From a virus (Duplodnaviria; Caudoviricetes), in the IMG/VR virus record IMGVR_UViG_3300031852_000001, positions 1,107 to 65,106 of that record: a stretch of 64,000 nt of DNA; one strand, 5' to 3'. The position numbers and the translations under genes are program-made. Below the pieces are notes generated by a model. It had not been told where the DNA came from, made no database searches, and was given only the letters and a program-made list of their open reading frames with translations. This document shows, piece by piece, positions 1 to 63,423 of the stretch. Within the stretch, counting starts at the first letter, position 1; the number at the start of each line of letters is the position of its first letter.

Positions 1-5
1 ACCTG

Positions 6-257
6 GTGTTCCTGCGCGACGGTAACCGTTGCGTCATCATCAAGGCTGACGGCCGGCGCTGCTGGGACCGTGAGTTTCTTGAGTGTGACCACATCGGGGA
101 CCGCGAGGACCATAGCCTGGCCAACCTCAGGACCATCTGCAAATGGCATCATGCCAGGCGCAGCGCCTCCCAGGGAGGCACGGCCAGCGCACAGCGCAAA
201 CGCCCAATGCTCAAACGCCCCCCGGAGGTTCATCCGGGACTCATACAGAAAAGGTAA
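6..257 (+). CDS. HNH endonuclease (probably 5'-truncated by window), packaging-associated
   Basis: CDHI...NLRTICKWHH HNH motif directly upstream of terminase genes. Confidence 0.85.
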   Translation: MFLRDGNRCVIIKADGRRCWDREFLECDHIGDREDHSLANLRTICKWHHARRSASQGGTASAQRKRPMLKRPPEVHPGLIQKR

Positions 258-259
258 CC

Positions 260-682
260 ATGCCCGGCCCCGCCCCGAAGAAGGACGCGGAGCGCACCAG
301 GCGCAATGCTCCCGAATCCGGTGTAGCCCGCCATGGTCAGCTCCGACCTGTAACCATGCCCAACGCCGACCGGAAGAACTGGCACCCCCGAGCCCTGGCT
401 TGGTACGAGAGCCTGAGGACTTCTGGCCAGGCTGATTTCTATCAGGATAGCGACTGGGCCATGGCCAAGGTCACTGCGGATTATCTGACCCGCTGGTACC
501 AAAACCCGAAGGCTATGGACATGGCCAACATTCTTGCCCTCATGGGCCGATTCGGAACCACCGAAGGTGACCGCCGGCAGATCCTCCGACTGGAGCTTGA
601 GCCCCAGGTTGAAGAGGACAAGAGCGCAACCCTCATTGCCATTGATGGCTACCGGGAAGCTTTGCTCAAGAAGCAGGCGTAA
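260..682 (+). CDS. Terminase small subunit
   Basis: MPGPAPK...W...WYESLRTSGQA...SDW pattern typical of actinophage TerS; RBS AAAGGT; position. Confidence 0.8.
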   Translation: MPGPAPKKDAERTRRNAPESGVARHGQLRPVTMPNADRKNWHPRALAWYESLRTSGQADFYQDSDWAMAKVTADYLTRWYQNPKAMDMANILALMGRFGTTEGDRRQILRLELEPQVEEDKSATLIAIDGYREALLKKQA

Positions 683-738
683 CTACCCAAATACTTATCG
701 GCGTAACCGCCCTTACCTAAGAAGGGGGGTGATTCCCC

Positions 739-2444
739 ATCCCTAAGATCATTGTTGAAAAACCCGAGCTTGAGCCCTCCCCCGAGAATGCCAAGAAACT
801 TTTCCCGCCCGTGACTATCGGCCCCGTCTGGCAAACAGACGAGGAAGGTAACTGGCTGCTGCCAGAGAAAACACTTGGCTGGGAGGTACTTGGCTGGTGT
901 GCTGAGTGGCTTGTAAACCCCGAAGGTGAGCCCTGGATTTTCACGCTGGAACAAAGCAGATTCATTCTGTGGATGTACGCGCTCGATGAGCGCGGCAGGT
1001 TCAAGTACCGCAAGGCGGTACTGCAGCGTCTAAAGGGATGGGGTTGAATGGCAAAGACCCCCTTGCCGCCGCAATCTGCGTCGTTGAGTTTATCGGCCCC
1101 TGCAAATTCTCCCACTGGGACCAGGATGGCAATCCTGTTGCGAAAGCAAACCCCACCGCCTGGGTACAAATTGCAGCCGTAAACGCCGAGCAGACCAAAA
1201 ACACGATGCTCCTAATTCCGACGCTGCTGCCGCAGCGGACGCGAACGCATTTCAACCTGGAAGTGCAAAAGCAAATCATTCAGGTAAAGGGCCGGCCAGA
1301 CCAGCGAATTGAAGCAGTTTCAGCTTCATATCGTTCCATGGAAGGCAATAGGCCTTCAATGGCCATTCTTAATGAAACGCACCACTGGACTCCTTCCCGT
1401 GGTGGAGCTGATTTGTACTTTACCATTCGTAACAACGTCGATAAACAAGACGGCCGTTACCTTTGTATTACCAACGCCTACCTCCCCGGCGAAGGATCTG
1501 TAGCTGAGGAAATTCGAGAAGCTTATGATCGTGAGCGCGATGGTTTAGCTGAGGACTCAGGCTGGTTTTACTGTTCACTTGAGGCCAACGCAGCAGCCCC
1601 TCTTACAAAGGACTGGGCTCCCTTTATCGTAGACACGATCAAAGGGGATGCGGTCTGGCTAAAGACGGAAGTCATTGTCCAGTCGCTTCAGGATACCTCC
1701 GTTCCCCCGTCCCGCCAGCGGCGAATGTGGTACAACCAAATTGTTGCTTCTGAAGATTCCATCTTCAGTGAGGCCGAATTTGACGCCATTGCCCTTTGGG
1801 ATTCCGATGAGCGCGGTTTCCGCCGTGCATTCAACCTTACGCCTGGTGACTCTATCGTCGTCGGTTTCGATGGTGGCAAGAGTGATGATGCCACGGCCCT
1901 TGTGGCAATTCGCGTCAGTGACCGCATGGCATTTCCCATTCAGATATGGCAGCGCCCCGAAGGGCCGGCCGGCGACAACTGGGAAATCAACAAGCAAGAA
2001 GTGGACAGCATGGTCCACTGGCTCCATCGCGTATTCGACGTGCAGGCAATGTACTGTGACGTCGCATTGTGGGAGAGCTGGATTGAGTCCTGGTCAAATC
2101 ATTACCGCGAAACTCTCCTAGTAAAGGCGAGCCCCCGCTCAGCCATGGGCTATGACATGCGTGGAAATCTTGAAAAGACCACGCGCTTTCACGAGGCACT
2201 TATTCAAAACGTGCTGGATCGAAAGATATTCCACAATGGCGATCCCCTCCTGCGCCGACATGCCCTTCACGCTAAGCGCCGTGAGAACAAGTATGGCCTT
2301 TCTTTTGGAAAGGACAGCCGCAGCTCAGGGGAAAAGATCGATGCTTACGCTGCCTTGCTTCTGGCATTCATCGCACTAAACGAGCTGGCCGAACGTGGCA
2401 AGAAAGCCCCGGTCATTTACGACTCAACACTATTTCAGTTCTAA
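739..2444 (+). CDS. Terminase large subunit, split in two frames (739..1047 and 1038..2444); needs recoding; inferred ATC start
   Basis: N-part ends QRLKGWG-stop, C-part continues GKDPL; Walker B-like ILNETHHW; nuclease GFDGG..D..KIDA. Confidence 0.85.
1032..1055 (+). other. Candidate recoding site (GGT-TGA-AT-GGC hop, or A_AAG_GGA -1 slip)
   Basis: Removing 8 nt (1042-1049) restores KGWGKD. Confidence 0.6.
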
Positions 2445-2453
2445 GGACTATCA

Positions 2454-4010
2454 TTGACCACCCTGCATGACTACGCCCAGGCTCAGTCCGCGTACCCCCT
2501 GGTTACGGCCGAAGCTGAACCTGGCACGTACGACGCGGAGCTGGTCCAGGAAATGTATCAGACGCTCCGCAAGGACCGCGCTGACGTTTTCGATATCTGC
2601 CACAAGTACTTTATGGGCGAGCACACACAGCCCTACGCCCCGCGTGAAGCATCCGATCAGATCCGCGATCTGCAGGAACGCTCCATTACTAACTGGGTGC
2701 CCTTGCTCGTGAATCTGCCCAGCCAGGTTTCTTTTGTGGACGGTTACCGCCGTGGTTCGTTTGGTGAAACAAACGAGGCCGATGGATCCTCCAAGCCGGC
2801 AGGCGGCGTGAAGCGCTTCTCCCCGGAATATGAGTGCTGGCAGCGAAATGGTTTTGACGCGAAGCAGGCGGTAATCTACCGCGCTGCCCTACAGTACGGC
2901 CACTCCTTTGTCCACGTCAACAACACCAATGAGGATAAGAAGAAGCTCAAGCTGGAGGTTCTTTCCACCCGGAACACCATCGCTTACTTTGAGGATCCGA
3001 TCAATGACGTTATCCCCGTCAACGTCCTCACCATCAAGTCCTACCCGCGCGATGAAAACCGCCCCGGCATTGCCGTGTACTGGGATGAAATCAACCGCTA
3101 TGACCTGGAATACACCAGCGCGGAAGAGTTCGTCCTAAAGAACACCACGCCCCATGAGATGGAAGTTTGCCCGGTTGTTCGGTACACATGCTACATCGAT
3201 GATGAGGGCGCGACGTCGGGCGTTATCCGCCCGATTATTGCAATGCAGGATCGAGTAAATCAGGCCGCATTCTCCACGAATATAACCGCCGATTTTGGCG
3301 CCTTCAAAGTTAGGACTGCCGCTGGCCTGCAGGTCAATTTCAAGATCGACCCCGCGACGGGCGAACCGCTGATAGATCCTGTTACTGGCAAGCCTGTTCC
3401 GGAACCGATTGCAATCAGCCAGGCTAAGCTTTTGGTCAGCGGCAATCCTGACACAAAATTCGGACAGCTGGACGAAACTCCGCTGCAGGGATATTTGCTT
3501 GCAGAGGATCAGGCAGTGCGTAACCTGGCAGCAATTGCACAGTTCCCGCTGCACGCTCTCCTGGGAAATGTTTCCAACCTTTCCGCCGAAGCGCTCAACG
3601 CGCTTGAGGCACAATTCATGCGCTTTCTCCAGCACCTTCACACGAGCTGGGGGGATTCGCACGAGCAGCTATTCCGCATGATCTGCATTGCCCTGGGCGA
3701 TAAGGCCGGCGCTGACTCCTTTGGTGGAGAAGTTCGCTGGCGCGATATGTCCAGCAAGGCATTCGGCGCAATGCTCGATGGCCTGGCCAAGGGTGTTGAA
3801 TCCCTGGGCGTCCCGAAGCGTGCCGCCTGGTCCCTCATCCCCGGAATTACTTCCGGCCAGTTGCAGGACTGGGAGGAACTGAGGGAGGACGAAATCTCCG
3901 AGATGCAGGAACTTGGTATGGATCCGGTATCGGAGGCCAACCGTGAGCTTGGAGCCAAGCCTGCCAAGCCCGCAGCCAAGCCTGCAGCAGCCGCAAATGG
4001 CAACAAGTAA
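2454..4010 (+). CDS. Portal protein (SPP1 gp6-like)
   Basis: 518 aa after TerL; NWVPLLVN, EEEVCPVVRY-like, SAEAL motifs; TTG start with AAGGA RBS. Confidence 0.9.
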   Translation: MTTLHDYAQAQSAYPLVTAEAEPGTYDAELVQEMYQTLRKDRADVFDICHKYFMGEHTQPYAPREASDQIRDLQERSITNWVPLLVNLPSQVSFVDGYRRGSFGETNEADGSSKPAGGVKRFSPEYECWQRNGFDAKQAVIYRAALQYGHSFVHVNNTNEDKKKLKLEVLSTRNTIAYFEDPINDVIPVNVLTIKSYPRDENRPGIAVYWDEINRYDLEYTSAEEFVLKNTTPHEMEVCPVVRYTCYIDDEGATSGVIRPIIAMQDRVNQAAFSTNITADFGAFKVRTAAGLQVNFKIDPATGEPLIDPVTGKPVPEPIAISQAKLLVSGNPDTKFGQLDETPLQGYLLAEDQAVRNLAAIAQFPLHALLGNVSNLSAEALNALEAQFMRFLQHLHTSWGDSHEQLFRMICIALGDKAGADSFGGEVRWRDMSSKAFGAMLDGLAKGVESLGVPKRAAWSLIPGITSGQLQDWEELREDEISEMQELGMDPVSEANRELGAKPAKPAAKPAAAANGNK

Positions 4011-60639: not shown

Positions 60640-61275
60640 ATGGAACCTAATCCATATACAGACACCATGAGCAACCTAAATGCTATGCGTTCATTGTTTG
60701 TTTGTTTGCGGATACTGTCACTATCCAATTTTCAGAGTACCAACGCGCCTCGGAGGGCTTTTGCGTCTGGCTTTTATCCAGTAGGCAGTATTGTTCGCTA
60801 CGCAACTTACCTACATCAGAGATTCCACCTAGGGATTCTCTACTCTGGCTCTCTCGTTCCCATGCCGTTGCCTAACGCTTGCACTCACAGATCCGCTACA
60901 GACTTGCTATCCGGGCAGCTACGTCGTTTATCTAGGGGAATACTTTCACGCTACTAGCACTAGCCAGCGGGAGCCTGTATCGATAGTTCAGCTTACGAGG
61001 GTATCCCCGTATGGAAGCACCTAGCTATCACTCCTGTATCCCCCATGTATCACTTGGGGAGCCTTATTCAATTCTCAAACAACATGCGATTGAAGGAAAG
61101 TTTACCTAGCGATCAATCCCAGAGATACCCCCGGCCCAGATCATTGCTAGTACACCTACCCAACTACGCCCTACTTTTGTTCTGCTATTGGGACAGACAC
61201 CCTACCGTTCGGTAGCCCGCTAATCTGAGGCTCATAGCTGCCGTAAAAAACTTTTGGTTCCCGTGAGAACCGGTG
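60640..61275 (-). ncRNA. Candidate long structured leader / ncRNA
   Basis: No convincing ORF; several long stems with G-U pairs on minus strand. Confidence 0.45.
61064..61084 (-). promoter_or_regulatory. rrn boxA-like sequence
   Basis: TGTTGTTTGAGAATTGAATAA vs actinobacterial rrn leader TGTTGTTTGAGAACTCAATAG (recalled). Confidence 0.55.
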
Positions 61276-61280
61276 TTGCT

Positions 61281-61320
61281 GTTACTACTGTACCACACTT
61301 ACTGAACTACTTACTTACTT
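61281..61320 (-). promoter_or_regulatory. Early promoter P1 (extended -10)
   Basis: TGTGG-TACAGT; upstream (AAGT)3; 20-bp identity with P2. Confidence 0.65.
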
Positions 61321-61455
61321 AGCTAGACTGGCCAGAACTCCAACGTAGGGTTGGTAGTTTAGTCTCATGCAGCAGCTTCCCGTAGGTTGCCGGAGCATCC
61401 ACCCCTTGCAGGGTGGGATCTGTGAGCCCTGCCGGATATCCGGCCTGTCTTGCTG

Positions 61456-61490
61456 GTTACTACTGTACCACACTTGCTACTTACTTACTT
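61456..61490 (-). promoter_or_regulatory. Early promoter P2 (extended -10)
   Basis: Same 20-bp core and (AAGT)3. Confidence 0.65.
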
Positions 61491-61886
61491 ACCGGTTTAG
61501 CGGGGTCTTTCCACCGTTTGCCGCCTGCTGCCCTGTAGGTCTATGAGGTCTGGCTTTATGAGTGGCGAGTGCCGCCTGTACCGATATGACTAGCTTAGCA
61601 CTTACTTAGCTACTTACCTAATCGGCTGGCCTGCCCTGTCCTAGCGGCTGGCCTGTCCGGCCGGTCCTGCTGGCCTGACATCAACTAATCTACGCCGATG
61701 CTAAGTTACTCTCCAGTAGGTTACGTTTTATTACGTAACTACTCCACTACGTAGTTAGTCCTTAGCTCTAACGCATGTAGCGCGCGATCTTAGTGCATGG
61801 ATATGGATTGTGTCAAGCCCATGCATGGTTATGCATACCAATGCATAAGTATTCGGCCGGCATTGATCCTACTTGACAGTAACAAG

Positions 61887-61950
61887 GGTGGGGGGGTATA
61901 ACCCCGCGCGCGCACGCTGGCCCCCCGGTGGTTGTTAGCACCCCCCATCG
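61887..61950. other. Candidate cos region / physical genome end
   Basis: G7 and C6 runs flanking CGGTGGTTGTT; transcription diverges here. Confidence 0.4.
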
Positions 61951-62508
61951 CGTACGGGTTCAGAAGTTTCGGGGAAGGCATCCTGGGCTCGCCAAGGCTG
62001 TGTCCTGGTGAATAGTTATGCATCGCGGTTCCCGCGTAATCTCAGGGATCTTCATGCTTCCGTCCTGGCATTCCGGGTGCCGGCTAAGGCCGGCTGCAGC
62101 GGGGGGAACTTTGGGGGTATTTAGGTGCCTGGCCGGGGAGCGGTTGCCCTGGCTGGGGAGCAGGGGCTTTCGCAGTTGGATCCGGCCAAGCGGTATCAGT
62201 ATGCCACATTGGTTGACGGTTGGTTGACTGGAGAGTGTGACGACGATCACACGAGTAAAGTGTGCGCAAACCCCGATGTGAACACTCTTATACATAGTGA
62301 GAGGGGGGATAAGGGGGGAGAGCCCGGTGAGCGATAGCGAACCCACGCGGCCCCCTGGAGGGCCGCTTACCGGCCGACCGACCGATAGTAGAACCGCGTA
62401 GCCCAAGCGGAGCGGATCTACGCTGTGGCTTCGATCCACTCCGACCGATGTGTAGCAGCGCTACACCAACCCGGTGTGTTTGAGGTTCTTTAGTGCGGTT
62501 CCTTACCT

Positions 62509-62574
62509 AGCCATGGAAATCCTTCAGCCATGGACCATACCTCTCACTCAGCCATGGAACTAACCCAGCCATGG
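62509..62574 (+). repeat. Four AGCCATGG direct repeats
   Basis: At 62509, 62526, 62550, 62567. Confidence 0.75.
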
Positions 62575-62907
62575 TTCCCACCAGTTGCACTCCCATGTAA
62601 ATCGGTCTTAGCCAAGGAAACTTCCACTCCTTCCGTCCCTGGCTTTGTTGACGTCTTGGTTCCGAGTCCTGGTGGGTAAGCTTCCACCCCCGCTAACACG
62701 GCCGGCCAATGAAACCGGGTCCGTGGGGGTGGTCCTCTTTCCGGGGGGATAGCGGCAGTCGCGCAATGAAGCGGACAGCCCGCCCCCTGGGATCTAAACC
62801 CGGTACCGCCGCACCAGCGGCCCAGGGCCGGTCTTATACTCTCGCATCTGCTCATAGGCGCGGGAGCGCCGGCCACATTGGGATGATGCCCCTGGAGGCC
62901 GGCACAC

Positions 62908-62980
62908 GTTGAGGTAGCTCAGTTGGTAGAGCAGCGGTCTCCAAAACCGCAGGTCGTAGGTTCGAGCCCTGCCCGCAGCG
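62908..62980 (+). tRNA. tRNA-Trp(CCA)
   Basis: Cloverleaf; GCGGT-CT CCA AA-ACCGC; TTCGA loop; no encoded CCA. Confidence 0.9.
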
Positions 62981-63222
62981 CGAAGGTTGAGTTTGCACAA
63001 TCAGCCGAACATGGTTTAGTGTATATATCGCTGGTCCTTATCAGGGAGTCCTCCAAAACGCTCCCGTCATCTTCTATCAATTTACCTACTAAACAATTGT
63101 TTGACGCGGGGGGACCAGTACATTAGTTCGAAGCTAATAGAGGTGGGGAGTAGTTACCCCGAATGCAATAAGCAACAAGGTCACTAGGAACTGAGACGCC
63201 TGGTGGCCTTTGTTGTATCCAA

Positions 63223-63296
63223 GCCCCCTTAGCTCATCATGGCAGAGCGCCGATCTTGTAAATCGGAAGTGACTGGTTCGACACCAGTAGGCGGCA
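63223..63296 (+). tRNA. tRNA-Thr(TGT)
   Basis: CCGAT-CT TGT AA-ATCGG; TTCGA loop. Confidence 0.9.
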
Positions 63297-63345
63297 CTCG
63301 GGCGGGAGGTATCCAGATAGAAACGGTACGTCCCGCCCGGATCAA

Positions 63346-63418
63346 TCGTTACTAGCTCAATCGGCAGAGCACGCGACTGTTAATCGCGCGGTTCCTGGTT
63401 CAAGTCCAGGGTGGCGAG
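63346..63418 (+). tRNA. tRNA-Asn(GTT)
   Basis: CGCGA-CT GTT AA-TCGCG; TTCAA loop. Confidence 0.92.
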
Positions 63419-63423
63419 CAAAC

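Follow-up and report, generated by a model that had tools for sequence, protein, structure and literature searches.

A probable eight-nucleotide ribosomal bypass at a UGA stop within the P-loop of a phage large terminase gene

How does a complete phage genome express its only large terminase when the gene, terL, is broken by a stop codon and a change of frame? The question is raised by a 64,000-nucleotide stretch of a caudoviral genome (Duplodnaviria; Caudoviricetes), referred to below as the window, which comprises bases 1107-65106 of the 65,106-bp IMG/VR virus record IMGVR_UViG_3300031852_000001. In frame 1 of the plus strand, CTA AAG GGA TGG GGT TGA at 1030-1047 reads L K G W G stop, and the frame 1 text of terL ends in YRKAVLQRLKGWG before the TGA at 1045-1047. 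Frame 3, which is open from ~993, reads ATG GGG TTG AAT GGC AAA GAC CCC at 1038-1061 and continues to a TAA at 2442-2444, giving 468 amino acids (aa); its terL text, (MGLN)GKDPLAAAICVVEFIGP, picks up the family sequence with KDPLAAA at 1053. Aligned full-length homologues (548-567 aa) read QRLKG[W/H/A]GKDPLAA here with zero extra residues, and the extra DNA in terL amounts to exactly 8 nucleotides (nt), placed at 1045-1052 or, equivalently, 1042-1049. The original prediction, made from the letters of the window, had described QRLKGWG-stop in frame 1, GKDP in the -1/+2 frame and a coding gap of 8 nt; it is correct to the base.

The two pieces match adjoining parts of one protein family. The N-terminal part (739..1044, plus strand, frame 1) matches positions 69-135 of the large-terminase profile phrog_9 (E 2.1e-17) and aligns with residues 1-98 of full-length homologues, while the C-terminal part (1053..2444, plus strand, frame 3, including the TAA at 2442-2444) matches positions 134-690 (E 2.3e-47). 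The halves thereby abut in the profile, in order, at positions 135/134. Pfam gives no significant match for the window's two terL pieces. The C-terminal part is ~52% identical to large terminases of Streptomyces phages. The position of the break within the fold can be judged from a full-length homologue, P0004, which is 65% identical; the AlphaFold model is one of P0004 and not of the window's own protein. In this model (pLDDT 88), KGHGK forms the loop between a strand at 88-92 and a helix at 99-112, and the best matches in a fold search are the HK97 TerL (6z6d, E 4.6e-20), T4 gp17 and Sf6 gp2, while a PDB sequence search with the family profile gave no match. By profile order and homologue fold, both halves are assigned to TerL, predicted to comprise an ATPase plus a nuclease, and any residues added at the junction would sit in the P-loop.

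The reading favoured here with good confidence is that terL is decoded by a programmed short bypass triggered by UGA, or stop-hop, in which ribosomes cross 8 nt from GGU to GGC. The elements that would take part were assigned on the plus strand from the sequence. The take-off codon is GGT at 1042..1044, the last glycine of KGWG; the skipped TGAAT at 1045..1049 would place the UGA stop in the ribosomal A site, followed by a 2-nt spacer; and GGC at 1050..1052 is the proposed landing codon, to be re-paired by the peptidyl-tRNA-Gly and not decoded again. The resume codon is AAA at 1053, the lysine of the GK in the P-loop. A ribosome carrying peptidyl-tRNA-Gly on GGU would meet UGA (1045-1047) in its A site, and in a fraction of ribosomes the anticodon would release before a release factor acts. 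The mRNA would then slide forward by 8 nt, the same tRNA would re-pair at GGC, and decoding would pick up at AAA. The product would be a continuous large terminase with an intact family P-loop (...QRLKGWG-KDPLAAA...), and ribosomes that terminate at the UGA would release a fragment of ~100 residues. One tRNA-Gly(GCC) reads both GGU and GGC, and GGC pairs with it more strongly at the third position than GGU does. Removal of the 8 nt restores the family motif exactly, which counts in favour of the hop.

Before decoding is considered, the break itself has to be accepted as present in both the genome and the message. One rival explanation holds that the nucleic acid itself lacks the 8 nt or loses them, through an assembly or sequencing artefact, transcript editing or slippage, or a gap-free subpopulation, and relatives as close as L139 (gapped) and L024 and L025 (unbroken) do coexist. 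Reality of the junction was judged from independent assemblies. The same junction stands in L147, a contig of different sample origin that matches the window at 99.7% identity over 4.5 kb; a 63-kb ENA contig (L001), with 75% DNA and 84% TerL protein identity, keeps the same eleven letters, GGT TGA AT GGC; and a JGI contig encoding P0003 has the same ~395 bp without a called gene, separating its small terminase gene from a truncated terL. The junction is found in at least three independent assemblies from different samples and pipelines, the site offers no homopolymer or repeat for polymerase slippage, and the gap sequences evolve like inherited DNA (a TAG YY AGG series is described below). We know of no intron as short as eight nucleotides. 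Loss of the 8 nt from the nucleic acid is judged extremely improbable.

The nearest relatives also bear on whether the interrupted gene is functional. Two sister phages (L149 and L290) replace the window's junction with GGA TAG CCT GGC, a 9-nt gap that stays in frame. L290 is one contig, recovered by a metagenome scan for members of the window's clade, and shares with L149 both the type of junction and the leader sequence. The window, L001, L149 and L290 form one clade with 100% support. The insertion and its GGN..GGN pair, whose conservation among relatives the original prediction had named as a check, recur in aligned TerL genes, letter for letter in L147 and L001 and in altered form in L149 and L290. 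When the window, L001 and L149 are compared, with each half read in its own frame, codon positions 1/2/3 differ 10-16 / 4-8 / 35-43 times in the N-terminal part and 62-67 / 37-42 / 224-230 times in the C-terminal part. The pattern extends to the junction, with [1,0,7] for the last 20 N-terminal codons and [2-3,0,6-9] for the first 20 C-terminal codons. This excess at third positions indicates that ribosomes read both halves and that purifying selection acts on each in its respective frame, and the interruption has outlasted ~24% DNA divergence while its own letters changed. Judged from these comparisons, the 8-nt break is neither an assembly error nor gene decay. A block of 75 nt identical between the window and L001 upstream of the gap was considered as an RNA signal and dropped, as L149 carries synonymous changes throughout it.

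These observations bear directly on the explanation that the gene is split or dead: a polypeptide of ~100 aa would work together with a second one of 468 aa (from ATG 1038), or the element would be defective and terL a pseudogene. Gene callers do predict the 468-aa protein from ATG 1038, many gapped loci are prophages in bacterial genomes, and the tree requires at least 15 switches of gap state. However, selection acts on both halves across the divergence given above, the genome is complete without a second terL, and the break falls inside the strand-loop-helix of the P-loop, where, according to the P0004 model, a loop divided between two chains would be implausible. The ATG at 1038 directly abuts AAAGGG with zero spacing, and in other lineages the gap is not followed by a start codon, as in loci reading CTG GGG CTT ACC GGC and in L149 after its TAG. 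Furthermore, such gaps occur in GreenWeasel (genus Hautrevirus), a phiHau3-like phage isolated on Streptomyces griseus, which reads GGC TTA CCCC GGT AAG at this site and TCT TTA ACGG TCC ACG, a predicted Ser to Ser hop, at a second site (L289, 1620-1645). GenBank annotates its terL as genes 6, 7 and 8 (hypothetical, hypothetical and terminase). Since GreenWeasel is an isolate and gapped, gap-bearing phages are viable. A split or dead gene is therefore considered improbable.

A wider series of terminases shows how the junction varies. A similarity search of IMG/VR yielded 80 terL loci, of which the 71 with a K[D/N]P motif were used for locating the junction, and nine of the 71 are interrupted at this codon. 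IMG/VR and GTDB genomes were also scanned with the pattern AAGGGNTGG followed by 6-14 bases and GCAARGAYCC. The scans required GCAAR after the gap and so missed inserts of more than 13 nt as well as landings on GGT like that of GreenWeasel; the GTDB scan returned mostly chance matches along with at least nine informative prophages, and the counts of the series are not frequencies. Among the matches listed are 120 unique terL junctions, 67 of them unbroken and reading KG[W]GKD and 53 gapped. The gaps measure 5 (one locus), 7 (12), 8 (23), 9 (10), 10 (5), 11 (one) or 13 nt (one) and comprise 36 distinct junction types.

Despite this diversity, the gapped loci share one design. The take-off codon is GGN, or TGG where the insert sits one codon earlier. 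The next codon is TTA in 18 loci, TAG in 17, TGA in nine, TAA in three, AGA in two, CCA in three and GAT in one, so that a stop or rare codon directly follows the take-off in 49 of the 53. Then come 0-7 further bases and a landing triplet (GGC, AGC, AGG, TGG or TGC) immediately ahead of the resume codon. In 49 of the 53, two or three letters of this triplet agree with the take-off codon; the other four go from GGT to AGC. Variation in a twelve-member clade with TGG TAG NN AGG is confined to the two spacer bases (CC, TC, CT, TT). A single hop rule yields the family's KGWGKD in all 53 gapped loci, whatever the gap length modulo 3. The comparative evidence, with the same design in 53 of the 120 loci listed, thus favours the hop that the original prediction had drawn from a GGU take-off next to UGA and a GGC landing.

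The same series decides against the alternative named in that prediction, a -1 slip at A_AAG_GGA (1032-1038), and against a -1 programmed frameshift at any other point of the overlap at 990-1047; either would yield KGMGLNGKD with three extra residues. A slippery X_XXY_YYZ heptamer is indeed present in the window and L001, with frame 3 already open upstream. The heptamer is not kept, being T_AAG_GGG in L149 and L290, and it is absent from other gapped lineages, which read G_AAG_GGC or G_AAG_GGA. A separate shift would be needed for each of the gap lengths 7, 9, 10 and 13 nt, and 2-4 foreign residues would always be left in the loop, whereas zero unbroken homologues have extra residues here; in L047, the frameshift product would be GLGLTSK, in which the glycine before the lysine is lost. 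Frameshifting cannot explain the ten 9-nt inserts, which are in frame and each contain an in-frame stop. With the 9-nt gap of L149 and L290, only a hop, or read-through with three extra residues, makes a terminase. In addition, the zero frame keeps its Trp-Gly codons (TGG GGN) as far as the stop, although ribosomes that had shifted upstream would have no need of them. Of the features of a canonical -1 frameshift, the heptamer is unconserved and no significant structure was found. A frameshift at this site is given very little credence.

Several observations weigh against the hop or limit what may be claimed for it. The frameshift products GMGLNGK, GLGLTGK and GMVARGK would suit the pattern GxxxxGK, and KGMGLNGKD fits this loose pattern. 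Four gapped loci have no stop or rare codon after the take-off: L118 and L132 read TGG CCA AAAC TGC GGC (10 nt), L157 reads GGT CCA A GGC (7 nt), and L089, on a very long branch, reads GGC GAT TTTTT GGC (11 nt). These may be broken copies or hops triggered otherwise, and the slow-codon rule may not be absolute. TGA is the stop of 33 of 93 crude open reading frames (ORFs) in the phage and hence an ordinary stop there; termination must compete with the hop, and the yield may be low. Moreover, the fold of 1000-1085 is no better than that of shuffled sequences (z = -0.96); unbroken genes likewise contain AAGGG, the GGGG/CCCC pairing and the KGWG peptide; and among the signals compared, none specific to gapped genes was identified beyond the gap itself.

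The candidate helpers of the hop are all shared with unbroken genes, and similar ones were put forward for phiHau3. They are an internal Shine-Dalgarno (SD)-like AAAGGG at 1032..1037 on the plus strand, which is formed by Lys-Gly codons and ends 4 nt before the take-off codon; a 9-bp 5' stem-loop, AGTACCGC AAG GCGGTACT, at 1004..1022 on the plus strand, with 19 nt between it and the take-off downstream; and the nascent peptide KGWG, all of which may assist. The 1004-1022 stem is present in both minimum-energy and centroid folds, is intact in L001 and has one mismatch in L149. The original prediction had also proposed a hairpin, GGGGUU/GACCCC, spanning the site. The pairing (1040-1045 with 1056-1061) does appear in the minimum-energy fold of 1000-1085, with 4 bp in L001, but it is neither specific nor significant; it follows from Trp-Gly and Asp-Pro codons, is found in unbroken relatives too, and was rejected as a specific stimulator. 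Mean folding energy per nt is alike in gapped (-0.38) and unbroken (-0.40) genes. A downstream stem recurs across the series (GGCAAG with CTTGCC, and CCAGGGG with CCCCTGG in the TAG clade) and is partly coding-derived. We infer the hop in the window's phage itself, along with its efficiency, any help from stimulators and its regulatory meaning; the suggestion that the hop is a "tunable late switch" is speculation.

Programmed translational bypassing is among the rarest modes of reading genes, with T4 gene 60 and the yeast mitochondrial inserts as the well-studied cases. A related mode of recoding is the +1 programmed frameshift of RF2 (prfB), in which an SD-like element lies a few nt upstream, the P-site tRNA re-pairs and UGA competes with release factor 2. 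The displacement in the window is 8 nt instead of 1, and no autoregulatory logic is known for it. Low-level stop-hops between matched codons in E. coli reporters, and bypassing at hungry codons, were reportedly described by Weiss, Gesteland, Atkins and colleagues and by Gallant and Lindsley (refs 47-52 of PMC10732093). In both those cases and the present proposal, a peptidyl-tRNA lets go when the A site holds a stop or slow codon, and it re-pairs with a similar codon a few nt downstream. The reporter events, however, are unselected and inefficient errors, whereas the proposed hop would be the sole route to an essential protein and maintained by selection. The 50-nt bypass of T4 gene 60, in an essential phage gene, likewise uses matched Gly codons with a stop after the take-off (PMC10732093, PMC5009743). 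The window shares with it the matched Gly codons, the stop 3' of the take-off and a predicted single polypeptide from two frames. It differs in its 5-nt spacer, much shorter than a take-off hairpin in the gap would need; no significant structure and no linked homing-endonuclease cassette were detected, and the two have no sequence relationship.

The closest precedent is the terminase of the Streptomyces phage phiHau3, whose proposed short bypass the original prediction had mentioned; the case is real and concerns exactly the same junction (PMC10732093). The phiHau3 gene contains two 10-nt UUA-led inserts (g6/g7/g8), the first at ...QRLKGWG / KDPLL..., and its gaps are credited there to Smith et al. 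2013, as cited (PMC10732093). The prophages StrepC.1 and that of S. catenulae have 7-nt UUA inserts, and three of 100 Streptomyces phage and prophage terminase genes were found gapped, all with UUA (Antonov et al. 2023, PMC10732093). When UUA was changed to UAA in a phiHau3 g6/g7 cassette in E. coli, a junction peptide GWG|NDPLL indicated bypassing; support at this junction comes from mass spectrometry and reporters, and an internal SD was proposed as a stimulator (PMC10732093). A 2024 preprint still calls the terminase sequences "strong candidates".

The likeness between the window and phiHau3 covers the gene family, the codon and the insertion between the GWG and KDP codons. Both combine a Gly take-off, a cognate Gly landing and a gap of a few nt whose deletion restores the consensus, and in both an SD-like AAGGG and the KGWG peptide lie upstream. 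The window differs in its A-site codon, which is a UGA stop and not the bldA-dependent rare UUA, alike in function but not in letter. It has an 8-nt insert (-1/+2 frame) where the published ones measure 10 or 7 nt (+1 frame), and one gap where phiHau3 has two. The only stop codon tried in that study was the engineered UAA in E. coli (PMC10732093). The TTA codon is not exceptionally rare in the window's phage (1.8 per 1000 codons), so the proposed sensing of host development based on bldA does not apply. The published terminase case thus consists of three UUA-containing Streptomyces sequences and one engineered stop in E. coli (PMC10732093), to which the window adds a natural stop-codon version, in a complete phage genome and outside the TTA logic of Streptomyces.

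Other members of the series show the range of hosts and letters. TTA gaps are present in three Streptomyces prophages (L174, L175, L265), a prophage of S. albospinus (L264) reads GGT TGA CCC GGC, Actinoplanes has GGT TAG CCC AGC, and Brevibacterium sanguinis has TGG TTA C TGG GGC. The C-terminal part after the first gap is only 109-126 aa long in L175, L101, L126, L152, L281, L047/L094 and L159; from their sequences, relatives with such a short part would carry a second gap at the g7/g8 position of phiHau3. L281 is the terL of a prophage of Streptomyces sp. A5-4 and, at ~4329 in the locus, contains the window's own letters, GGT TGA AT GGC. It belongs to a Streptomyces-type lineage whose members are ~52% identical to the window's protein, and the shared letters reflect either convergence or transfer by recombination.

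The history of the gap is one of frequent change. On a maximum-likelihood tree of 109 C-terminal parts, the gapped or unbroken label changes at least 15 times, near-identical proteins differ in state (L139 against L024 and L025, as above), and identical gap letters recur in distant lineages, as for GGT TGA AT GGC. The number of state changes and the sharing of letters between distant lineages point to frequent gain, loss or recombination within conserved flanks. A broader proposal, put forward only tentatively and with some doubt, is that the P-loop codon of this actinophage terminase family is a hot spot for 5-13-nt inserts, with hopping at slow codons (UUA, UGA, UAG, UAA, AGA) being evolvable. 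If this were true, short hops would be a general and readily evolvable capacity of actinobacterial ribosomes. The gaps might persist by destroying the target of a site-specific nuclease, or be scars of error-prone end-joining after a cut in this conserved DNA, selected for hop competence, both of which are raised as possibilities only; together with a weak AUC start, described below, they could also throttle terminase output. The 36 junction types form a natural mutational series in gap length, trigger and landing codon from which the rules of short hops may be derived. For annotation, the consequence is that gapped terminases are now called as 2-3 genes (GreenWeasel 6-8) or as truncated proteins of 450-468 aa.

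The remaining features of the genome place terL in its context. Direct terminal repeats and a CheckV completeness of 100% mark the 65,106-bp record as a complete virus, with a G+C content of ~58%. A profile search with phrog_9 found a single terL in the complete genome and no second one. Upstream on the plus strand lie an HNH endonuclease gene (3..257, phrog_333, E 3.5e-19), which has lost its 5' end at the window edge, and the terminase small subunit gene (260..682, Pfam PF25673 Terminase_7, E 3.3e-36, profile positions 1-138 of 139); the portal gene (2454-4010) follows downstream of terL. The gap shows no association with an upstream HNH gene, which is present in 32 of 48 gapped and 32 of 49 gap-free relatives, and an HNH-linked mobile cassette of the kind known from T4 was rejected on these counts.

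A crude ORF map shows that stop-codon usage differs along the genome. Of the 24 plus-strand ORFs of the late operon (143-26639), most end in TAA, some in TAG and none in TGA, while minus-strand genes (27000-60000) often terminate with TGA. The TGA inside terL may be the sole in-frame TGA met by ribosomes on the late operon. A region of ~1 kb (60958-61959) has no ORF of at least 60 aa and is followed by two short minus-strand ORFs at 61960-62876. Beyond these lies a tRNA cluster with Trp(CCA) at 62908-62981, Thr(UGU) at 63223-63297 and Asn(GUU) at 63346-63419; the phage encodes no tRNA-Gly and no suppressor tRNA.

The start of terL is likewise unusual. A canonical start codon is lacking for the conserved N-terminus: in frame 1, which opens at 733, the first ATG, GTG or TTG is the GTG at 811, and a start there would lose ~24 conserved residues. 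An extended SD-like run, GAAGGGGGGTGATT, lies ahead of terL at 721..734 on the plus strand and is presumably complementary to the 3' end of 16S rRNA. The run is identical in the window, L001, L149 and L290 despite ~76% overall identity, as is a stretch near the terL start, GAAGGGGGGTGATTCCCCATCCCTAAGAT. An ATC at 739, in frame 1, sits 9 nt after the SD-like run, and terL probably starts at this codon (AUC initiation). Alternatively, GTG 729 combined with a +1 slip on CCC_C (735-738) would give MIPIPK, similar to the MIPIPE of L003. AUC initiation is the likelier of the two, since L087 and L091 keep ATC at the same spacing as the window without the slippery run. In the window, L001, L149 and L290, the spacer that separates the two terminase genes (683-738) is better conserved than the flanking coding DNA, with GGCGTAACCGCCCTTAC identical in all four, and may contain a regulatory or packaging-related site.

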